From a virus (Duplodnaviria; Heunggongvirae; Uroviricota; Caudoviricetes): a stretch of DNA of 42,538 bases. Shown here piece by piece: positions 24,305-33,655 of this stretch (position 1 is the first letter of the stretch; each line of letters starts with the position of its first letter). The notes beneath the pieces were generated by a model. The model was not told where the DNA came from, did no database searches, and saw only the letters and a program-made list of their open reading frames with translations. The translations under genes were made by a program, and so were the position numbers. The stretch lies in IMG/VR virus record IMGVR_UViG_2537561945_000004, one strand, 5' to 3'.

Positions 24305-24597
24305 TCCTGTTCACTGGCCTCTTTGGCCATCTTCAAATACTGTTCAGGGCAATGCGCCATAACGCGCTGAAACAGTTCCAGCGCCAGATTGCGTTGCCCC
24401 TCATTAAATGCCATTGCCATAGCGTCCATCGGTGAGATGGCGGAAAACACACGGCCTTTCTCCAGCACCGACCAGACAACGCGACGCCCCTGTTCACTGC
24501 TCATGACAAAGCGAATGTCATCAATTTCACGCTGCGCCATGTCACGTTGCTTACGGGCGTTTTCTTCTTTCAGTTGATCGTCTTCGTAATCTGTCAT
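24301..24597 (-). CDS. Hypothetical small protein between portal and scaffold
   Basis: 98 aa; overlaps portal stop and scaffold start (translational coupling). Confidence 0.45.
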   Translation of the reverse strand: MTDYEDDQLKEENARKQRDMAQREIDDIRFVMSSEQGRRVVWSVLEKGRVFSAISPMDAMAMAFNEGQRNLALELFQRVMAHCPEQYLKMAKEASEQE

Positions 24598-26273
24598 TGT
24601 GATTGCCCACCCTGACCACTAACTGCATTCGCCATAGCTGACAACACACTCGGATCCGAAGTTTTAGCTTCGCTTAGCGTCTTGGCCCCCTGTGCCGCCG
24701 CCATCCCCATCGCCATCATTTGTTGCTGCTGTTGTTGCTGTGCCCGTTGCTGGCGAGCCTGCTCAACCTGTTCCTGCGGAACAATGACGGTTGGAGACAC
24801 TCCGGACATATCAGCGAATGCATCGATCGCCTGATCAACGTTGAGTTTGTCGAGAGCTTCTGGTTTCGCTTGCGCAAGTTGACCAATGAAGTTGACCGTA
24901 GACGCCAGACTGGACAGGCCGATAGACTTCTGCGCCTGAGCCATGACGGAAATGTATTCGACCTTCAGGGGCATACCTTCCATCGCGTCAGGCGGTGGCG
25001 GCAGCATGTTTTTACGCACCATCATCGAGAAAGCGCGGTCAATGAGAGGATTAAGACATTCGTCGTTCAGACGCTCCAGAACCGGCCCCAACATCAGAAG
25101 TTTTTCTTCTTTCATTTCGATCACCGCTTCAACAGGCATCGAGCGGGTATTGATGTTCTGCAACATCATGAACAGATCGACAAAGTAGGCGCTGTTAATA
25201 ATTTGGCGAGTGTCCTGAATGTCTGCTACCAGATCTGCTGTACTGGGGTTAACCAGATAAGCAGGCCTGAAACCATCCTGACCAGTAATCTGATCGATAT
25301 ACGTGATGTCGCCAGGAAGAAGGGAGGCGCGCTGATTCTTGAGGGAAGTCGGAGCAACCATCGGCGGATTGGTGGCTTTATCAATCAACTGCGACTTGCG
25401 CTTCTGGAGAAGCTGCAATGCCTTAACAGGTCCAAGCGCCAGCATACCCGGGCATGATGATCCATAAACATCTTCGCCGTTAACTTCCCAGCGCGGAGCC
25501 ATAATTGGAAACTCATCGAATCCGGACTCACGCAACAACTTGTCGTTATCGCCACCAACCTCGTAATAAACCGATTTGAATGGCTTGTTCTTGCTATCCA
25601 GCTTCGATGTATCGCGGTCAATGTTCGGGTAAACCGAATGCATCACTTCAATCCACTTCTCGTAGGTGCCGCTTTCCCACATGCTTTTTACGGATTCGCT
25701 GACGTTATTTAGCCCGAACTCCTGAACAAGCTGACGAACAGTCATAGAGAACTTGCGAAAACAGGTGTCCACACTGCCACGAGGTGAGTTAGCCAGGTAG
25801 TAACTGCCTATCGGGAATGGCATTGTGCGAATGATGTCCTCGTCATCCTCCAGCACTGCCATTGCACCAGTGCTGTATGTGCCGAGGCTTCCGTATAACT
25901 GCGGCAGAGACTGATAGAGATTCGACTTATTGAACATATCGTTCATGCGGTTCTGCACCGCCTCAAGCCACAACTTAACAGGGCCATAATCCATCATTTC
26001 AGGATCTGGCGTAGCCAGGCGAAACCACGGACGCGCGGGGCTTGTGATGCCTGACATCATGCCGCTGGCGAGAGTGCGCGCCGCCATAGTCCCGGTCGAA
26101 TCAATAATGCGTGTATTGCGTCGATCGTTACGGTTGACCTCAGAAGTCAGAAAGCGGGAACCACGCGGGTTGATGTAATCACTCAACTCGCGCCAGTGCG
26201 GCTCGAACGACTGACGCTCGCTTTCAAGTTGTGCGAACTGTTTGTTCAATCGCTCTTTAGTTGTTTCCGCCAT
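24594..26273 (-). CDS. Portal (head-to-tail connector) protein, T7 gp8-like
   Basis: 559 aa; Gln/Ala/Met-rich C-terminal tail (QQRAQQQQQQQMMAMGMAAAQGA) like T7-type connectors; GGAG RBS. Confidence 0.7.
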   Translation of the reverse strand: MAETTKERLNKQFAQLESERQSFEPHWRELSDYINPRGSRFLTSEVNRNDRRNTRIIDSTGTMAARTLASGMMSGITSPARPWFRLATPDPEMMDYGPVKLWLEAVQNRMNDMFNKSNLYQSLPQLYGSLGTYSTGAMAVLEDDEDIIRTMPFPIGSYYLANSPRGSVDTCFRKFSMTVRQLVQEFGLNNVSESVKSMWESGTYEKWIEVMHSVYPNIDRDTSKLDSKNKPFKSVYYEVGGDNDKLLRESGFDEFPIMAPRWEVNGEDVYGSSCPGMLALGPVKALQLLQKRKSQLIDKATNPPMVAPTSLKNQRASLLPGDITYIDQITGQDGFRPAYLVNPSTADLVADIQDTRQIINSAYFVDLFMMLQNINTRSMPVEAVIEMKEEKLLMLGPVLERLNDECLNPLIDRAFSMMVRKNMLPPPPDAMEGMPLKVEYISVMAQAQKSIGLSSLASTVNFIGQLAQAKPEALDKLNVDQAIDAFADMSGVSPTVIVPQEQVEQARQQRAQQQQQQQMMAMGMAAAQGAKTLSEAKTSDPSVLSAMANAVSGQGGQSQ

Positions 26274-26287
26274 TTCAATGACTCCGG

Positions 26288-26494
26288 TTACTGACCAAGT
26301 AGCGTTTTACCGCTGGTATTAGCGGTTGATGTGTCGCCCTGAGAACCGGTAAGCAGCGTAGAACTACGACCAGCAGCAGCGCGACGGCGACGAGTTTCTT
26401 CGTCGCGGGCATCAACAACGGCGGCATCCTGCTCCTGTGGTGCTGCCTGAACTTCTGGTGTTGCAGGCACTGATGGTGAGCTACCCATGCACAT
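26288..26494 (-). CDS. Possible small protein upstream of portal
   Basis: 68-aa ORF with GGAGTCATTGA RBS-like motif identical to that in front of the portal gene; weak composition, uncertain. Confidence 0.3.
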   Translation of the reverse strand: MCMGSSPSVPATPEVQAAPQEQDAAVVDARDEETRRRRAAAGRSSTLLTGSQGDTSTANTSGKTLLGQ

Positions 26495-26583
26495 ATCAAT
26501 GACTCCGTACGCAATTAAATTATTACCAATTTAACCACATATGATTTATTTATCGTAGGAGGTTGACATTTAACGCACGAATT

Positions 26584-26600
26584 ATTACCTTTCAGGTAAC
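26584..26600. promoter_or_regulatory. Operator-like palindrome ATTACC-TTTCA-GGTAAC with TTGACA (26563-26568) upstream
   Basis: Perfect TTACC-N5-GGTAA; candidate promoter/operator for the plus-strand ncRNA/tRNA/moron unit. Confidence 0.45.
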
Positions 26601-26920
26601 CAAAAAGTTCATTCCGGTTACTAACCTGACTGGCTTGTCGTTAAATTGAACAGGTGGAGTGAGCTTTTATTTTGAGCAGTACGGCGTATGGCACATGCGC
26701 CGATAGCGGTCTGGGTACGTTTAAGGGGCACCCTCCCTTGCTCGGGCAAACGAACCAGGTAGCCGGAATGTGCAAGTCGAGCGGTTTTATTCCGCGCACG
26801 GGGATTCACCATCCCGGCGATTCGGTGTGACGCCTCGGAAGAGACGAGGTACAACGATGAGAGCATTTATGGATCCGCGACAAAGTGTGGCGCCTTAACA
26901 GGCTAAGTGCTCTCAGCGTT

Positions 26921-26997
26921 GTGGCATTAGCTCAGTTGGACAGAGCAACCGCCTTCTAAGCGGTTGGTCGCAGGTTCGAATCCTGCATGCCACGCCA
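26921..26997 (+). tRNA. tRNA-Arg (anticodon UCU, reads AGA), phage-encoded
   Basis: 77 nt; acceptor stem GTGGCAT/ATGCCAC, discriminator G then CCA; anticodon arm ACCGC-CTTCTAA-GCGGT; T-loop GGTTCGAATCC; sequence differs from the E. coli argU I recall. Confidence 0.85.
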
Positions 26998-27199
26998 GAA
27001 TCACGCCTAAGGACCGTGATGCCAGAAGTTCCAAGTGCTTGGCGGTGATGGTTTCCCTTGAAGGACTATCACCGCCCTTTTTACAGCAGGACGCCATTGC
27101 GATGACTTCATGCTGTAAACCCGTACAGCCACGGAAGGCAGAACTCATTGCTTCCAGTTCGCCCGGTTCGCCGGGCATTTTTTTGCTTGATGACCGCAA

Positions 27200-27216
27200 A
27201 TTACCTTAAAGGTATA
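27200..27216. promoter_or_regulatory. Operator-like palindrome variant ATTACC-TTAAA-GGTATA overlapping RBS of 27220 gene
   Basis: One-mismatch variant (GGTAT) immediately upstream of ATG 27220. Confidence 0.4.
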
Positions 27217-27219
27217 ATC

Positions 27220-28038
27220 ATGAAAAACTTCAAGGTAATTAGCATGTTTGAATCGTTCAAAGAGCTGTTTTTATCTACTGCCAATACTGCCGTGAATCGA
27301 GCCAAAAACCCTGTGCTTGGTGCTTTTGTTATGTCCTGGTGCGCCTTCAACTGGAAATCAATTCTTTATCTATTTTTTAGCAAATCAAACATAATAGATA
27401 AAATTTCATATATCTCAGATAACAGCACATGGAAAACTGTTATGTTTTATCCATGCTTATCTGTAATTGCTATCTGCTGCCTATTACCATGGGTAAACAA
27501 TATCATTAACGTATGGCAAGCAAAGCCTCTTGATAATAATGACTCAATCGAAAATCACCTGAAGGCAAGAAAAATCCAGCGTGAAACAAGGCTGCAGAGG
27601 TTATTGGCTAAAAAAGATGTTACATACGACAAAGTTAAGACTGGCGCGGAAAAAGACATCCAAGAGATGAAAGAAGAGATTATTCGTTCAAAGAATAGTA
27701 TGGGGGAATTGACTGCCGAGTTGAAAGCTAAAGATGACGAATTGAGATCCGCCAGTGCTCAGTTAGCAGCTCTAAATCATTCATTAAAAGAGATATCGGA
27801 AACTCTTGGAAGAATGAATGAGGCATATAAGACCCTCCAAAATGATTTCGACGAATACAAACTCAAATACCCTGAAAAATCTCAAATAAAAAGCCTTGCA
27901 CTTGGCAACGGCCAAACAATTAGCAACTTTTTGGAGCAACACAACTTATCCGGATTAAAATCTGGTAAGCCAAACGTTTTTAATAACTTTGGTGTTCTAT
28001 CTGGATTATCAGGTTTCGAGGATAAAAATAAAGACTAA
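27220..28038 (+). CDS. AT-rich moron: membrane-anchored coiled-coil protein, function unknown (candidate exclusion/abortive-infection-type protein)
   Basis: ATG 27220 (track ORF starts upstream at 27148); two hydrophobic segments then long charged coiled-coil; markedly lower GC than neighbours; opposite strand to the late operon; stop overlaps terminase large stop. Confidence 0.55.
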   Translation: MKNFKVISMFESFKELFLSTANTAVNRAKNPVLGAFVMSWCAFNWKSILYLFFSKSNIIDKISYISDNSTWKTVMFYPCLSVIAICCLLPWVNNIINVWQAKPLDNNDSIENHLKARKIQRETRLQRLLAKKDVTYDKVKTGAEKDIQEMKEEIIRSKNSMGELTAELKAKDDELRSASAQLAALNHSLKEISETLGRMNEAYKTLQNDFDEYKLKYPEKSQIKSLALGNGQTISNFLEQHNLSGLKSGKPNVFNNFGVLSGLSGFEDKNKD

Positions 28039-29510
28039 GCATATGGATCGTACTCGGTAAGCGCCTTGCCTTGCTGGTTCTGCTGCCCGGGAAGTCGCAG
28101 GCGCTTTGACACCGGGAAAGCAAACGTCAGCAGTAGCGCATCGCCTTTACCAGGCGAACGCCCAAGTCGTTCTTTGATATCTTCCTTCGGTTCGATAACG
28201 ATTTTACCGTCCACGCGAACTTTGTACTCTGCCGCCGACAGATCGTCCGCTGTTTCCTGGTCATCCAGCATCCCGCCCAACCTCAGCCATGTCTTGCATG
28301 AGTTGAACATCTCCCCACGCTTGTTAAGCATCTGCGGGTCAGTGGACGCACCGCCGAACGGAACAAGTTGCCATGTACGTCCCCAGCCATCACCGATTGA
28401 CTTCAAACCGGTTCCGTAACCGAAGTCGATGAACACCGCGTCAGCCTGATACTGGTCTTCAAAGTCAGCGATACGCTTCGCCATAATCAGATCGTCGGTA
28501 GTCTTGTTGCCAGTCCACAGCACCTTACTGTGTAGCCCCTGCCGCAGGTATATCACCGCGTCATCAACGCCTGAATATGCCGGGTCAACACCGATTATCA
28601 CCGGAGCATGCGCCACCTGCGCAGCGGTCACCACCCGTTTCATTGCCTCATCAGTAAGACCGGTAGGGATAAACTGCAATTCAGATGCATCAGGGAATAT
28701 GCCGCGCACACGGATTTTAACGAAGTCGCTGTCTTCCCCGTAGTCATCAACCCATTTCTGCAACTGCTGTTTGTTAGTGCCTTCCACCGTCCGGCTGTCA
28801 ATCTGCGCAGTTTTCCAGCGGTGTTTATACTTGCGGAAACATTCACGGAATCGCCCGGTGTTACGTGTCGGGTTTCCGAACGCCACCCAGATAATCTCAG
28901 TGTCTTCGTCCGTAAGCGCACCCTCAGCAACTTCCCACACCAGATCCGCAATATTCGACGCTTCATCGAATACCACGATGATGCGTTTGCGCTCGTTGTG
29001 TAGTCCGGCGAATGCCTCTGTGTTGTGCTCAGACCAGGGGATTGCGTCAGCTCGCCACCGCTTGTCGTGCCCAGGATCATTGCTGTACATCGCGGTAGCG
29101 GTACAGGTAAACCAGTCTTTCGTGATAGCAAGGTTCGACCACTTGATAATTTCCGGCCAGGTCTTCGTTCGTAGCTGGTTGTCGGTGTTGGCGGTCACCA
29201 CGACCTTACAATCCTCGCAAGTGGACATGCCCCAGTTGATCAGCATTGAGATGAATGCGGATTTACCAATACCGTGACCAGAAGCGCGTGCCAGCATAAG
29301 CGGCTGATAGCGCGTCTCTGGATTCTGCAGGTGATCACGTATCTCTCGGAACGCATCAGCCTGCCACTGACGTGGGCCGGTGGCATGTGCCAGTTCAGTC
29401 CCCTCTTCCCCCCACGGGAACGCATAGAGGGCATAGCCAAGCGGATCGTGAGTGAACCCTGCAATATCCTCGATCAACTGCTCTTCAGGAGATAACGCTG
29501 TATCTGTCAC
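28035..29510 (-). CDS. Terminase large subunit
   Basis: 491 aa; ATPase N-terminal and nuclease C-terminal terminase architecture; overlaps terminase small stop. Confidence 0.75.
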   Translation of the reverse strand: MTDTALSPEEQLIEDIAGFTHDPLGYALYAFPWGEEGTELAHATGPRQWQADAFREIRDHLQNPETRYQPLMLARASGHGIGKSAFISMLINWGMSTCEDCKVVVTANTDNQLRTKTWPEIIKWSNLAITKDWFTCTATAMYSNDPGHDKRWRADAIPWSEHNTEAFAGLHNERKRIIVVFDEASNIADLVWEVAEGALTDEDTEIIWVAFGNPTRNTGRFRECFRKYKHRWKTAQIDSRTVEGTNKQQLQKWVDDYGEDSDFVKIRVRGIFPDASELQFIPTGLTDEAMKRVVTAAQVAHAPVIIGVDPAYSGVDDAVIYLRQGLHSKVLWTGNKTTDDLIMAKRIADFEDQYQADAVFIDFGYGTGLKSIGDGWGRTWQLVPFGGASTDPQMLNKRGEMFNSCKTWLRLGGMLDDQETADDLSAAEYKVRVDGKIVIEPKEDIKERLGRSPGKGDALLLTFAFPVSKRLRLPGQQNQQGKALTEYDPYA

Positions 29511-30100
29511 TGATTGCCATCCTGACGTTCTTTCAGTCTCTTCCTGGCTGCCGCTATGCGATCAGCAATTGTCACATTCACATTAACATCCAGACGTTCT
29601 TTGAATGCATTGACATCGACGTGCTTACCAATCAGCTCAAGGTTCTTCACCTTGTCAGGCCATTTAATTTTTTTGAGGATTGTCTCTATCGAATCCTCGT
29701 TCATGTTCATGATGGTCGATGACAGATCAAAGCCGCTAAGCGTAGTGCGCCAGATTTTCGGCCACTCGCGGATTGGCTTAAGGCTCCCATCGTCGTTGAG
29801 GATATCAATCACGTCCATCTGGTCGATCTCCACCAAGCGCATGAGAACGTAATCAGCACTGACACGCATTCGTTTGTTGCGTTCCTCCATCAGCTCGGCA
29901 ATCCGTTTCTGAATGCGTTCATCGCGCATCATGACACTGGCTTTAACTGCCGCTGTATTTGGGGAGAATCCTGCGTTAATCGCTGCCTGAGTCTGGTTTT
30001 CAGGCATTTTGATGTATGACTGGCAATAAGCCTCCTGCATTGCTGTTAGTGGCTTAAATTGCGTTGATTTGCGTTTATAGGTTTTAGGTTCAGCAGGCAT
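29507..30100 (-). CDS. Terminase small subunit
   Basis: ATG 30100 with GGTGG RBS (MPAEPKTYKRKS...); track ORF extends to 30181 across the operator and terminator, which I reject. Confidence 0.6.
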   Translation of the reverse strand: MPAEPKTYKRKSTQFKPLTAMQEAYCQSYIKMPENQTQAAINAGFSPNTAAVKASVMMRDERIQKRIAELMEERNKRMRVSADYVLMRLVEIDQMDVIDILNDDGSLKPIREWPKIWRTTLSGFDLSSTIMNMNEDSIETILKKIKWPDKVKNLELIGKHVDVNAFKERLDVNVNVTIADRIAAARKRLKERQDGNQ

Positions 30101-30120
30101 AATAACCACCCTGGTAATTG

Positions 30121-30135
30121 TTACCGTTGTGGTAA
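30121..30135. promoter_or_regulatory. Operator-like palindrome TTACC-GTTGT-GGTAA (overlapping GGTAA-TTG-TTACC at 30113-30125) in front of the late operon
   Basis: Perfect TTACC-N5-GGTAA 15-30 nt upstream of the terminase small ATG. Confidence 0.5.
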
Positions 30136-30144
30136 TAGTAACAT

Positions 30145-30172
30145 GCAAAATAAAGCCGCCATAGTTGGCGGC
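30145..30172 (-). terminator. Early-operon terminator preceding late genes (tR-prime-like)
   Basis: On the minus strand GCCGCC-aactat-GGCGGC followed by TTTATTTT. Confidence 0.55.
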
Positions 30173-30212
30173 AGTATTCAAAACACATCAAATTCATCAT
30201 GCATAATCTACT

Positions 30213-30225
30213 CGTGACATGTCAC
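30213..30225. repeat. Palindrome CGTGACATGTCAC (copy 2 of GTGACATGTCAC), overlapping stop codon of 30222-30569
   Basis: Seen directly; same 12-bp core as at 10016-10027. Confidence 0.5.
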
Positions 30226-30569
30226 ACTATTAATTTCGTTTCATGCCAGCCTTTAGTCACCCAGCATTGCGAGTCACCATTACACGGGCATGAATTAACT
30301 GGAACTCTCTCGCCGCACTTACCGCAACGTTTTCTGCTGATCGATTTTATACGCCCGCGCACGCGTGCATCATCCTGGCGGATCAGTAACGCTATATACT
30401 CACCAAATTCGTAAGGCGCACGCCCGGGGCGACGTGTGGCACAGTTACGCTCCAGCATTTCAATTTCCTGAGCATCAAGCACAATCTCCAGCTTACGTAC
30501 ACCGGATTCAGCTTGTCTGGCTCTCTGAGCGGCTTTGCGTTCTGCGGGGGATTTAGCCACGAATCGCAC
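30222..30569 (-). CDS. Zinc-ribbon protein upstream of late operon (possible late-gene regulator/antiterminator)
   Basis: C-terminal CGKCGERVPVNSCPCNGDSQC cysteine cluster; position corresponds to lambda Q; start uncertain (GTG 30569 or ATG 30458 with AGGAAA RBS). Confidence 0.4.
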   Translation of the reverse strand: MRFVAKSPAERKAAQRARQAESGVRKLEIVLDAQEIEMLERNCATRRPGRAPYEFGEYIALLIRQDDARVRGRIKSISRKRCGKCGERVPVNSCPCNGDSQCWVTKGWHETKLIV

Positions 30570-30675
30570 TCCACGCCAGATTGATTAATGACTCCCAGGC
30601 AATATAAACCCGGATACCAGCAGCCAGGCCGAAACCAATCACCATGGCATAAAGCAGAGCGTTGCACTTGTTCAT
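30553..30675 (-). CDS. Small hydrophobic peptide (40 aa)
   Basis: ATG 30675 overlapping the DUF551 gene stop, preceded by AGGAGG with 8-nt spacing; MNKCNALLYAMVIGFGLAAGIRVYIAWESLINLAWSAIRG; not in ORF track (below cutoff). Confidence 0.3.
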   Translation of the reverse strand: MNKCNALLYAMVIGFGLAAGIRVYIAWESLINLAWSAIRG

Positions 30676-31526
30676 CACTTCACCTCCTGCGGCGGTTCTG
30701 GTAGAGGCATCCAGTCGGTTACATTGCGGCTCTGCGTTTCGAAGAACTCCTCACCATTGCGGACAACATCAAAAAACTCACCGTCTCGATATTGTGCATA
30801 AAGAACGAATGCACCATCACATAAAATAATTACGTGCTGACCATCATCAGGCATTTGCTCACTACAGCTTATCCAACCATCCGGAGTTACCGGAGAGTTG
30901 CCAGCCAGTCTACGCAAAACAGCCTTAACAGCCTCAATACGGTCATCATCGTAACTTTCCGCCGTATCTATGCGGTAGAGCATGATGATTGCGTTATCAA
31001 TATCAGGATTGCCAGTCCACTCATTACCGCGATTGGATTCGGCAGCCTGGTTGCCGCGTACTGGTTGATTCTCGGCTTTACCCTGTCTGTCGTCGCTGCA
31101 TGAATGCCCTTCCAGCCAGGCCAATGCTTGTCGCATGAAATATGCAATATGTTTGCCGTGGTAATCGTCTTCATCGATGTGAAAAGCGATACTGCGGATG
31201 TATTCAATTGCGTTTTCAATGGCCTCCGGCGTTATCGGCGCTGGCGGTGCGGTATAAAACTTCGTCCCCAACGGCAACAACTTCATCGCTTTTTCTCCCT
31301 TAATGATGCGATAAGTTGATTTCCCGCCAAGGTCTACCGTTCCATCCATAACAAGGCCATGTTGCTTCTCTGAAACTTCACCAATAGGCTCTGCTTCCAG
31401 CGATGCCAGCGCAATTCGTGCCAGTTCTTCCGCTTCTTCTGCTGGCAGTACAACGTTGCTACCCGGTCCGTATGTTTCGCGCCACTGCTTGATTGTCAGC
31501 AGTCGCTCTTTGGTAATAGTGGTCAT
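30675..31526 (-). CDS. DUF551-domain phage protein
   Basis: C-terminal ..DGQHVIILCDGAFVLYAQYRDGEFF...VTDWMPLPEPP matches the DUF551 pattern common in lambdoid nin regions. Confidence 0.55.
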   Translation of the reverse strand: MTTITKERLLTIKQWRETYGPGSNVVLPAEEAEELARIALASLEAEPIGEVSEKQHGLVMDGTVDLGGKSTYRIIKGEKAMKLLPLGTKFYTAPPAPITPEAIENAIEYIRSIAFHIDEDDYHGKHIAYFMRQALAWLEGHSCSDDRQGKAENQPVRGNQAAESNRGNEWTGNPDIDNAIIMLYRIDTAESYDDDRIEAVKAVLRRLAGNSPVTPDGWISCSEQMPDDGQHVIILCDGAFVLYAQYRDGEFFDVVRNGEEFFETQSRNVTDWMPLPEPPQEVK

Positions 31527-31536
31527 TTGTTAGTCC

Positions 31537-32292
31537 TTAAACTGCCAGTTGCAATTGCATTTCAAAGCGGTCGCGTTGTTCACAATACGCAAGAGAACCA
31601 GGGCTATTGTGTGCCTCAATCCGTTCTACCATTAATGCTGCGCGTGTCTCTTTACTTGCAGGTGCATAAGCCCCAGACCAGGCTTTATCAATACCGATGT
31701 TTCGAGCGACGTTCGTACTATCTGCGCTGGCTAAGGGTAATTTTGTGAATATCAGCGGATTTAACATGCGCAATCCATGTAGTTTCGTAACCGGCTGACC
31801 ATGCTCATCAACAATGTGACAAATCAGGTCTTTCATTCTGGCTACCGCAAGAGTTGGGCGCTTTACGTCATAGTCTCCACAACTACCGATAGCCACTCGC
31901 GGAAACTCATTGCACAAATGAATAAACCGCTCGTCACTTTCATTCATGTGCCACACTGGAACGTCAGATAGTTTTCCGTGAGGCCACTCATTCAGAAGCG
32001 CATCATTTTCCTCCTCTCCGCCATCAATAACATCCGGGATAATGGCAAAATCGAATCCTGGGTGATTCTTCCAGCGAGCGACAAACTCGTAGTAATCGCT
32101 CCAGTCGATTTTGTTTTTGCCAGCTGCTTTCCAGGCGGTGAATGCACCGTTGTCCAGCGCGAACGACTGACAGTATTCAGCCGCGAGATTGATCTGTCCT
32201 GAATGCGCAAAACTGATAAACGCATGCCGCCCTTTCCATGCTCTCATTGCGCACGTATCAGGAGTAATAGGCCCACCGTGATAATGAATCAT
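31537..32292 (-). CDS. Hypothetical protein; candidate tRNA-guanine transglycosylase (TGT)/DpdA-like enzyme
   Basis: ATG 32292 with AAGGAG RBS (MIHYHGGPITP...); weak motif-level resemblance to TGT superfamily (HGGPITP, LDNGAF); assignment tentative. Confidence 0.35.
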   Translation of the reverse strand: MIHYHGGPITPDTCAMRAWKGRHAFISFAHSGQINLAAEYCQSFALDNGAFTAWKAAGKNKIDWSDYYEFVARWKNHPGFDFAIIPDVIDGGEEENDALLNEWPHGKLSDVPVWHMNESDERFIHLCNEFPRVAIGSCGDYDVKRPTLAVARMKDLICHIVDEHGQPVTKLHGLRMLNPLIFTKLPLASADSTNVARNIGIDKAWSGAYAPASKETRAALMVERIEAHNSPGSLAYCEQRDRFEMQLQLAV

Positions 32293-32293
32293 C

Positions 32294-32785
32294 TCACTCT
32301 CCTTTGATGCGAATGCCTGTTGCAATGCTGTTTATGATGCTGTCAGTGCATGGGGTAGAAAGCTGGGCATCTCCAGCAATTTTCATGACCTCAACATCTG
32401 CATATCGAATACCGAGGTGTATCAGACCGGCTATACCTGACTTAAGCCGAGCATTTTCCATAAACAGATCCTTTGCCCGCTGTTTTTCTGCCTCAAGCTC
32501 AACGCGCAGCTTCCCTACCGTTAGCGCAATATCCTCGTTCTCCTGGTCGCGGCGTTTGATGTATTGCTGGTTCCTTTCCCGTTCATCCAGTAGTGCCAAA
32601 GCAATCTTTGGATTAAAGGCAGCAATAAATTCAGCGTTGTTTTTCAGGACGTGTTGCGCAATGGCCTGACTACTTAGTCGGACCTCATAACCACGTGCGC
32701 CACGGTGTGGTTTATATGAGTCCCAGTCTCCCCACGTTGCTTTCTCTGCCGCCTCACGCAGTGCATGATAGTCAATCTTGTTCAC
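32294..32785 (-). CDS. Ea22-like coiled-coil protein
   Basis: N-terminus MNKIDYHALREAAEKATWGDW typical of ead/Ea22-like lambdoid proteins. Confidence 0.5.
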   Translation of the reverse strand: MNKIDYHALREAAEKATWGDWDSYKPHRGARGYEVRLSSQAIAQHVLKNNAEFIAAFNPKIALALLDERERNQQYIKRRDQENEDIALTVGKLRVELEAEKQRAKDLFMENARLKSGIAGLIHLGIRYADVEVMKIAGDAQLSTPCTDSIINSIATGIRIKGE

Positions 32786-33249
32786 TGGACGCCTCCTTTG
32801 CGAAGCTGGGCGGCGAACTCGTTAAGTGATATGTAGCAATCTCCAAATGTTAACGAGCCGCTCGACTGCATATGCTCCATAGCCATCTCTACCACCTGCG
32901 CCCGCACTTCAGCCATGAAAGCATCGGTGGCTGGGGTTTCAACACGGATGCTGTCGCGCAAGATGAAAAATGCATCAAGCATTCCAGTCTCCGGAACTTC
33001 ATCCTGATACTTCTCATACGCATCAAGAGCCTTCATCATCTCAGGTCCGAATGGTTGAGGGTGCGCAGATTTCAGTCTCGCATTCTCCGCTGCCAGCGCA
33101 TTAGCACGCACCAGTTGCACTTCCAGTTGCGTTGCCAAATCGCTGATCAGCTTTGCCACACTGCGCATATCAACGGCACCACATTCTGCTTTCAGTTCCG
33201 AAGCCATCTCATGCCCGGCGGCAACTAACCCTTTGATATTACTTTCCAT
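32782..33249 (-). CDS. Ea22-like / hypothetical coiled-coil protein
   Basis: ORF track; helical charged protein adjacent to the Ea22-like gene. Confidence 0.4.
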   Translation of the reverse strand: MESNIKGLVAAGHEMASELKAECGAVDMRSVAKLISDLATQLEVQLVRANALAAENARLKSAHPQPFGPEMMKALDAYEKYQDEVPETGMLDAFFILRDSIRVETPATDAFMAEVRAQVVEMAMEHMQSSGSLTFGDCYISLNEFAAQLRKGGVQ

Positions 33250-33310
33250 CTTTACCCTCGCTTATCCACATAACTTATTGATTACATTGATAACTAAAAA
33301 GATCGTCGAT

Positions 33311-33655
33311 TCAGAACTCTTCTATGTTCCAGCCACCACCTGCTTTCTTTGGTTTAACCGTTACCCCGATGATTCGGAACGGATACTGATCTGCGGCGAC
33401 TTTGGTTTTCACCCTGGCGTCGTCGGTCCAGAAACCTTTCACTTCGTGCAGTTCCATCTCGCCGGTGGCGAGCATCACAGCAAAATCGGGCGTATAGAAC
33501 GTGTTGTCAGCTAACCGCAGCTTGATACCCTCAAATCGATACCAGACGATTTCTCCTGCACGTTTACGCAGCTCAAGGTGCTGGCAATACGCAGATTCTG
33601 TTTTGTTCATTTGGCCTGTTTTGAGTCGACCAAGAGCCTGTATCTGTTTTCTCAT
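33311..33655 (-). CDS. DUF1064-family phage protein (resolvase/nuclease-like fold)
   Basis: Pattern MRKQIQALGRLKTGQMNKTESAY..LELRKRAGEI..YRFEGIKLRLA...YTPDF; operator motif immediately upstream. Confidence 0.5.
   Translation of the reverse strand: MRKQIQALGRLKTGQMNKTESAYCQHLELRKRAGEIVWYRFEGIKLRLADNTFYTPDFAVMLATGEMELHEVKGFWTDDARVKTKVAADQYPFRIIGVTVKPKKAGGGWNIEEF

Follow-up and report, generated by a model that had tools for sequence, protein, structure and literature searches.

A stretch of about 320 nucleotides (nt) lying immediately upstream of a phage tRNA gene, at positions 26601–26920 of the IMG/VR virus record IMGVR_UViG_2537561945_000004 (42,538 nt, referred to here in its entirety as the window), raises the question of whether it is a leader of that tRNA, a regulatory sequence or an RNA gene in its own right. 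A preliminary description of it, made from the letters alone, had regarded the stretch as noncoding, GC-rich and too long for a simple tRNA leader, and had suggested a structured regulatory RNA, a ribozyme-like element or the precursor portion of a composite transcript. The comparative analysis reported here leaves little doubt that a structured plus-strand phage RNA family exists, with the structure described below. The more far-reaching statement, namely that positions 26676–26923 are the gene for a conserved pseudoknotted phage noncoding RNA (ncRNA) which would be freed from a longer precursor by processing and would act in trans, is given a probability of roughly 0.5 as a whole.

The widely conserved element comprises 26676–26923, the final 3 nt of which are shared with the tRNA-Arg gene; the first ~75 nt of the stretch hold a leader hairpin (26603–26668) that is specific to Uetakeviruses and lies outside the wide conservation. 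The core of the element (~26681–26867, often extending to 26920) is 70–82% identical by BLAST in phages otherwise unrelated to the window. In P1, P7, D6, SJ46 and RCS47 the element lies between tRNA-Ile2 and ban; in the lambdoid carriers (cdtI, mEp460, mEp390, 1720a-02 and Stx2c/Stx2a converting phages) it is always positioned immediately 3′ of a cI-type repressor gene, on the same strand; and further copies are carried by other Uetakeviruses of Salmonella, Klebsiella and Enterobacter and by the Klebsiella phage SopranoGao. It is present in 1837 of 5426 complete Escherichia coli genomes, with at least 80% query coverage in 1472 of these, and in 591 plasmid records, which are mostly P1-like. 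An exact scan for a 19-nt block of the element (the 19-mer, see below) retrieved at least 120 IMG/VR contigs and, among species representatives, 11 enterobacterial genera (plus Erwinia). No common partner was found among the neighboring proteins. The annotation under the element is “none” in every E. coli genome among the matches listed, and a few phage or plasmid records place a “hypothetical protein” over it (mEp460 gp37, Tyrion gp54 and SopranoGao gp01). Some records carry other host labels (loci of the collection are cited by L numbers): a family member, L008 (OM816834.1), was deposited as a Stenotrophomonas phage, and L146 and L158 are metagenome-assembled genomes labeled Oscillospiraceae/Bacillota, of which L158 has the top-scoring full scaffold (169.5 bits) and L146 only weak matches (≤10.2 bits) to the covariance model R1. 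For these loci, host mis-assignment or contig contamination is likelier than a real spread outside the Enterobacteriaceae.

The evidence that carries the existence of the family is the covariation of its helices. A sample of 130 loci was reduced to 44 cluster representatives, from which 39 scaffolds were aligned. Across the scaffold, 98.4% of the cells are standard pairs, as compared with 29–49% when the partners are slid by 1–3 columns, and ten pairs are changed on both sides; for the long terminal stem the corresponding values are 94.6% and 30–60% (33 distinct stems), with compensatory changes in 11 of 19 pairs. The sequences are related, and the pseudoknot is supported by one clade only; given the slid controls and the count of independent pair types, chance appears a very unlikely source of the pairing in this alignment. 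The suggestion of a structured RNA, for which covariation had been proposed as a check, is therefore upheld by 39–44 distinct homologues from unrelated phages.

The scaffold (Table 1) is the sole match of model R1 in the window. Of the 39 sequences, 20 have G-C and 19 have A-U at the H1 pair 11/23, and none is unpaired there; 12/22 is an invariant U·G. The junction helix has changed from CG to UA in nine sequences (pair 37/92: C-G in 30, U-A in 9) and from GC to AU in two, has one invariant U·G, and encloses a variable hairpin that always bears a CCUUG-like motif. Pair 147/155 of H4 is found as A-U, U-G, C-G and U-A, and in the pseudoknot formed by the H4 loop a pair is C-G in 35 sequences, A-U in four (the cdtI clade) and unpaired in none. 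H3 was left out of the covariation scoring because the alignment is unreliable there. Both hairpins that had been named from the single sequence, GGGATTCACCATCCC and CCTCGGAAGAGACGAGG, turn out to be conserved helices with compensatory changes, H4 and H6, respectively. The scaffold further contains near-invariant single-stranded blocks, UGGCAC, GGUAGCCGGAAUGUGCAAG, GGCG and GGUGUGAC, the second of which, the 19-mer, is identical in 13 BLAST-derived homologues and shows only single substitutions in loci retrieved by another pattern. In an alternative fold given by RNAalifold the H1 loop region GGCACAU is paired with AUGUGC of the 19-mer, which is neither supported nor excluded because both blocks are invariant; H1 was retained over it because H1 covaries, and a 4-bp contact between the H1 loop and the 19-mer is at most possible.

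The plus strand was assigned because U·G occupies several scaffold pairs in every one of the 39 sequences and is common in the terminal stem as well; read from the opposite strand, these pairs would become A·C. All 30 full-length homologues fold more stably on the plus strand (mean −93.8 versus −80.8 kcal/mol); in the window, 26601–26920 folds with −117.7 kcal/mol on the plus strand (z = −2.6, with none of 100 shuffles as good), the minus strand having a z of −1.6. The GC richness is only mild for the whole stretch (53.1% versus 49.3% for the window, with 18% of 320-nt windows equally high) and reaches 57.7% in the core 26676–26923.

Rfam 15, searched at its gathering thresholds and also with E values up to 10, found only the tRNA within 26400–27250, with nothing else better than E = 2.4 apart from tRNA-antisense artifacts, and gave no consistent match on the element in 12 homologous loci. 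The preliminary description had taken a missing Rfam match and a lack of structural conservation as signs against its reading; the former is what was found, and the structure is clearly conserved, so that the element is to be called undescribed rather than unreal. The invariant blocks gave no match in a literal sequence search across 8 million papers, and topic searches (prophage small RNAs, the P1 ban operon, phage RNA motif catalogues) returned no description of the element; a catalogue of ~10,000 viral candidate RNAs (PMC10690425) could include fragments of the scaffold RNA. The family is thus undescribed in all resources queried and is structurally unlike known phage RNAs.

Table 1. Features of the element and its flanks, in window coordinates (MFE, minimum free energy)
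Feature	Position	Strand	Remarks
Candidate early promoter	26563–26599	+	−35 TTGACA 26563–26568, 17-nt spacer, −10 TACCTT 26586–26591; read from the sequence
Palindromic operator-like TTACCTTTCAGGTAA	26585–26599		overlaps the candidate early promoter
Leader hairpin, Uetakevirus-specific	26603–26668	+	long irregular duplex of RNase III-substrate type; MFE −22.8 kcal/mol, z = −2.2
Conserved scaffold RNA (family core)	26676–26853	+	~175 nt, pseudoknotted; model R1 142.5 bits, E ~1e-42
H1 hairpin CGGCGUAU-GGCAC-AUGCGCCG	26682–26702	+	loop invariant; covariation
Junction helix AGCGGUCUGG...CCAGGUAGCC	26705–26776	+	around variable hairpin, then 19-mer; double changes
Near-invariant 19-mer GGUAGCCGGAAUGUGCAAG	26758–26776	+	
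H3 variable hairpin GCGG-UUUUAUU-CCGC	26781–26795	+	length and sequence vary by lineage
H4 hairpin GGGATTCACCATCCC	26801–26815	+	double changes in 3 of 4 pairs
Pseudoknot, H4 loop CACC with GGUG	26807–26810 with 26824–26827	+	
H6 hairpin CCUCG-GAAGAGA-CGAGG	26833–26849	+	double changes in 3 of 5 pairs; 96.9% of cells pair
Long terminal stem UACAACGAUGAGAGCAUUUA/UAAGUGCUCUCAGCGUUGUG	26850–26923	+	~20 bp; 3′ strand takes in first 3 nt of tRNA
Hypervariable cassette inside terminal stem	26870–26903	+	7 to ~170 nt across relatives
tRNA-Arg, anticodon UCU	26921–26997	+	ARAGORN; Rfam 73.3 bits (26921–26994)
Hairpin AUCACG-GCCUAAGGAC-CGUGAU behind tRNA	27000–27020	+	
Intrinsic terminator 1	27041–27085	+	14-bp stem and T run; likely 3′ end of RNA-tRNA transcript
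Intrinsic terminator 2	27161–27184	+	

The modules flanking the scaffold are conserved to different extents. The leader hairpin is common to epsilon15, Tyrion, PAT1 and BUCT711, with compensatory changes (GUUCAU/GUGAGC versus GCGCAC/GUGCGC) and with U·G pairs that are possible on the plus strand only, and the corresponding stretch of epsilon15 is annotated as “RNaseIII mRNA processing”. The terminal stem takes the form ACAAC-N-...GAGC / GCUC...-GUUGUGG in most lineages. The cassettes inside it differ between near-identical phages (the window and L040) and are common to unrelated scaffolds (the window and cdtI-type phages, SPN1S and 1720a-02, L073 and L097). T-arm-like hairpins are present in some cassettes or flanks (10, as compared with 0 in shuffles), 4 of them outside true tRNAs, and the tRNA-like content of the cassettes may represent tRNA mimicry under diversifying selection. 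A second long stem, ACAAC...GUUUUGUGG, follows the terminator in the early-left leader of mEp460/cdtI (L004 2931–3021), and its tip in mEp460 bears the 13-mer GGGCUCAUAACCC (L004 2962–2974), which is identical to the anticodon arm of the E. coli initiator tRNA. The terminator tail ahead of this second stem, CGCUCUUUUUACAA, looks boxA-like.

The slot behind the terminal stem is variable as well. An adjoining tRNA is found in 8 of the 44 variants, six with tRNA-Arg(UCU) downstream and two with tRNA-Ile2 upstream; the element is indeed too long for a simple tRNA leader, as had been proposed, and its identity as a tRNA 5′ leader was rejected because the other 36 variants have no tRNA attached. In most relatives the slot without a tRNA begins with GUGG and ends with CCAC-N-CCA, followed by AAUCACGCC, and the tRNA-like module held there consists of GUGGUGA, a GCGCAGGCUGAUGCGC hairpin, a variable middle, GCCGGAGAUCAGCACCGG and YCACCAC (-AAC), with a 7-bp acceptor-like stem (located at L004 2741–2868, L009 ~1690–1790 and L006 ~1706–1870). 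The hairpins of this module change by compensation (GCGCA/UGCGC to GCACA/UGUGC; GGCGG/CCGCC), and the module is carried as a small protein in the records of Tyrion (gp54) and SopranoGao (gp01). The hairpin that follows tRNA-Arg in the window also trails the tRNA-like modules of L049, L073, L090 and L115, which suggests a shared 3′ processing or stability element. In L008 (1631–1750), and also in L082, L090, L115 and L019, the element is followed by an RprA-like 3′ module (AAUUGCUGUGUGUAGUCUUGGC and a terminator). This module reaches 50.2 bits in L008 against a gathering score of 70 and may be a phage mimic of a host Hfq-dependent small RNA.

The stretch is embedded in the packaging/morphogenesis part of a phiV10/epsilon15-like (Uetakevirus) E. 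coli phage or prophage, with a 68-aa open reading frame (ORF, 26288–26494) and the portal gene, both on the minus strand and together spanning 24594–26494, to its left and, to its right, the plus-strand tRNA-Arg(UCU), then an accessory ORF and the minus-strand large terminase gene. The pattern TTGACM-17-TACCTT with an overlapping palindrome, TTACCTTTNNGGTAA, is conserved in the Uetakeviruses BUCT711, SPN1S and OXA245phi3.2, and for epsilon15 the database record places repressor and IHF sites in the corresponding spacer. Across the family, 22 of 44 variants have promoter-like sites in the 100 nt upstream (shuffled mean 10.6, maximum 17), and 20 of 44 have terminators downstream (shuffled 3.5, maximum 7). 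In P1 the element is 2.3 kb away from the ban-operon promoters P1ban/P2ban. In lambdoid phages the element starts 10–55 nt past a promoter set in operator-like repeats right after cI; in mEp460 the order is operators and the likely PL, the RNA, a strong terminator (~2886–2930) and the early-left genes; and in SopranoGao a terminator, a TG-extended promoter with its −10 ending 3 nt ahead of the model match, and the RNA follow one another within 70 nt. Transcription from the first promoters to fire on induction, as these positions would imply, probably points to a role in host takeover, early gene control or counter-defense. The ORF behind the two terminators of the window has a sigma70-like promoter of its own (27190–27218, ATGACC-17-TATAAT, 10 of 12 matches) that ends 2 nt before the ATG at 27220; the match of this accessory, coiled-coil ORF (to 28038) to PHROG 4780 begins at residue 9. 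The second Met, near 27244, is the probable start of the ORF, which probably forms a separate transcription unit. The idea of a composite transcript is compatible with the anatomy (promoter/operator, leader hairpin, scaffold, long stem, tRNA or tRNA-like module, terminators), with RNA ends that are predicted.

In the model proposed here, the operator-overlapped promoter at 26563–26591 would give rise to one precursor of ~480 nt, which includes the tRNA-Arg and ends at 27041–27085. The leader hairpin and the terminal stem would serve as double-strand-specific (RNase III-type) processing sites and RNase P would cut at 26920/26921, so that the scaffold RNA and the tRNA are freed as separate stable molecules. 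Once freed, the scaffold would act in trans at an early stage of lytic growth, through the binding of its near-invariant single-stranded blocks to a host component that is conserved across the Enterobacteriaceae. The likeliest such target would be a part of the tRNA/translation or RNA-processing machinery, since relatives have tRNA-like companions and, in some cases, tRNA-mimicking cassettes. A more specific version, which we consider quite improbable, makes the scaffold a display platform, an abundant early RNA whose invariant core would bind a conserved host enzyme and which would present exchangeable tRNA-mimicking cassettes and companions (T-arms, the initiator anticodon arm, tRNA-like modules) as decoys or competitive inhibitors of tRNA-targeting defense nucleases or toxins. 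On this view, the hypervariability of the cassettes and their exchange between unrelated phages would make sense, as would the presence of real rare-codon tRNAs in the same slot.

Several observations weigh against this model. All that goes beyond conserved structure, i.e. the transcript, its ends and its processing, we infer from sequence, and the candidate promoter at 26563–26591 is too weak to reach the threshold of the consensus scanner. Because three residues at the 5′ end of the tRNA are also base-paired in the terminal stem, formation of this stem would compete with cleavage by RNase P. The P1 copy has no terminal stem and lies inside an mRNA operon, an arrangement that suits a role in cis equally. 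In epsilon15 (L005 1545–1639) the scaffold is reduced to H1 and the beginning of the junction helix (42 bits), approximately its 5′ third, so that the scaffold RNA is dispensable in at least one phage. The cassettes may equally be unconstrained tips of processing hairpins that gather tRNA debris. Finally, the sample is narrow (Enterobacteriaceae) and was gathered largely by the exact 19-mer, which inflates the apparent invariance.

The main rival to a trans-acting scaffold is a cis-acting processive antiterminator or anti-pausing RNA similar to put, in which the nascent scaffold would bind RNA polymerase and allow it to read through the terminators that come after. Such a role would fit the position of the element, 3′ of repressor-controlled early promoters and 5′ of intrinsic terminators (in mEp460, with the two of the window, and as a family-wide enrichment), its near-invariant sequence, which is expected of a polymerase-binding RNA, and the lower five base pairs of H1 with their flanks, which match put stem I (ACGGCG...AUGCGUCG in HK022 and in HK639 putL). 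However, model R1 has no match in HK022 27500–33500 (E up to 1) or in the whole of HK639 (E up to 10), and put RNAs are ~70 nt long with two stems and a triplex (PMC9378689), as opposed to a pseudoknotted scaffold of ~175 nt. HK022 contains a 14-nt match within the nun reading frame, which was dismissed as chance. Neither does the context fit throughout: the ORF downstream of the terminators in the window has its own promoter, SopranoGao is without a convincing plus-strand gene after the element, and in L094 and L051 the scaffold lies upstream of a boxA/nutL-like site, so that its function is not tied to antitermination. Each phage has, furthermore, a single copy: a partner site in the rightward operon, as in a putL/putR pair, was not found in 100 loci, of which L032 alone has two copies, which are tandem (3996–4158 and 4803–4963, minus strand), the second with substitutions in the 19-mer (GGAAGCUGG). 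Taken together, a put-like function appears doubtful.

A rather unlikely explanation is also that of a mere maturation or expression platform, the stems of which give RNase III/RNase P sites and stability to a downstream RNA while the element has no function of its own. The modular slot behind the terminal stem, which holds tRNA-Arg, a tRNA-like module or an RprA-like 3′ module, the long duplexes that look like RNase III substrates (one of them annotated as such in epsilon15) and the lack of constraint on the apical cassette would all be accommodated. However, across phages that have nothing else in common, a passive leader would retain neither a near-invariant single-stranded block of 19 nt nor a pseudoknot and five covarying helices, and P1 retains the scaffold without the stem or a downstream RNA module.

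The DNA-level, relic and coding explanations hold only a small share of the probability between them. It is very improbable that the element acts as DNA, be it a recombination or insertion hotspot, a set of protein-binding sites or a repeat around cargo of the miniature inverted-repeat transposable element type, with the covariation being that of DNA inverted repeats: inverted repeats do flank a variable segment, unrelated phages swap cassettes and the locus is mosaic, but the many U·G pairs, some invariant, would be A·C in DNA cruciforms as on the other strand, the plus strand folds better in every full-length homologue compared, and a pseudoknot and short compensating hairpins are unexpected for DNA sites. 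Equally remote is a relic, left by a phage tRNA gene cluster in decay, that was moved by recombination and has no present function; it would be in keeping with the tRNA-like fragments in cassettes and flanks and with the truncated epsilon15 copy, but decay yields neither compensatory substitutions nor near-invariant blocks across backgrounds of 70–82% identity, and the scaffold has no tRNA similarity in Rfam or ARAGORN. Finally, a protein or small peptide is scarcely credible as the product, as the preliminary description had already held for the 81-aa minus-strand ORF (26621–26866), since, despite overlapping ORFs of 42–81 aa and the hypothetical proteins of the mEp460, Tyrion and SopranoGao records, none of the six frames stays open in more than 16 of 40 homologues, reading-frame conservation of the kind expected for a protein-coding gene was not found, indels occur in all phases with block spacings taking all three values modulo 3, substitutions follow base pairing and not codons (GCGCA..UGCGC to GCACA..UGUGC in the module behind the terminal stem), and that ORF, although present, has no Pfam match and a PHROG match of just 21 residues (E = 0.0018).

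If the family is real in the sense proposed, it would be a large structured RNA class within well-studied genomes (P1, Stx-converting and other lambdoid prophages, O157 typing phages), carried by about one-third of sequenced E. coli and often misannotated as small hypothetical proteins. Its recognition would correct the annotation of thousands of genomes and add a new Rfam family, P1 c1-100 and inducible prophages would offer a ready system for finding a new RNA–host interaction, and the modular build, with scaffold, processing stem with swappable cassette, and tRNA slot, may serve as an RNA expression chassis.

With regard to known systems, several classes were rejected outright: transfer-messenger RNA, standard or permuted (none with ARAGORN -m in 44 loci and none with Rfam on the element), retron/DRT ncRNA (no reverse transcriptase among the neighbors in all annotated contexts) and the C4/P4 CI antisense RNA (Rfam clan CL00128), which is absent from the element and has its own locus in the window at 6808–6891. 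As a separate observation, that C4 antisense RNA (63.6 bits) is adjoined by isrK (6707–6783, 67.7 bits), both above the Rfam gathering scores; the pair constitutes, in a Uetakevirus, an antisense immunity module of the P1/P7 immI type and is also present beside an antirepressor in mEp460 (L004 206–394).

GOLLD and ROOL are, like the element, structured phage/prophage ncRNAs of unknown function; they are often found beside tRNA genes and their variable regions can hold tRNAs. They are considerably longer (~580–800 nt, as compared with ~250 nt for the element) and come from other bacterial phyla, and neither has an Rfam match on the element even at E up to 10; on multimeric cages the data for the element say nothing. 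The species 1 and 2 RNAs of T4 (rnaC, rnaD) are small, stable RNAs, likewise of unknown function, that are cotranscribed with phage tRNAs and cut by tRNA-processing enzymes. The element is likened to them by description and not by sequence, and differs in being mostly without tRNAs and in residing in temperate phages.

Bacterial Y RNAs (YrlA) combine a long stem of distant strands with tRNA-like arms, and some are RNase P substrates (PMC4201824); the T-arm-like hairpins of some cassettes recall the arms. YrlA was rejected as an identity, as its model has no match on the element and only a weak one on the P1 tRNA pair; YrlA genes adjoin Ro60/Rsr, whereas the neighbors of the element are portal, terminase, cI and ban, with no Ro60/Rsr seen. 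The RNase III hairpins of T7 early mRNAs and of the lambda N leader, with a ~20-bp duplex and a conserved internal mismatch or bulge, lie between the functional RNAs of an early transcript; the resemblance is limited to the leader hairpin and the terminal stem, as predicted sites, and does not extend to the scaffold. The put RNAs of HK022 and HK639, in turn, are encoded, like the element, right behind an early promoter (PL) of lambdoid phages and before terminators, and act without a phage protein. The element differs from them in having five helices, a pseudoknot and a long stem, and in occurring where there is nothing obvious to antiterminate; the family could still be a distant, enlarged relative of put.

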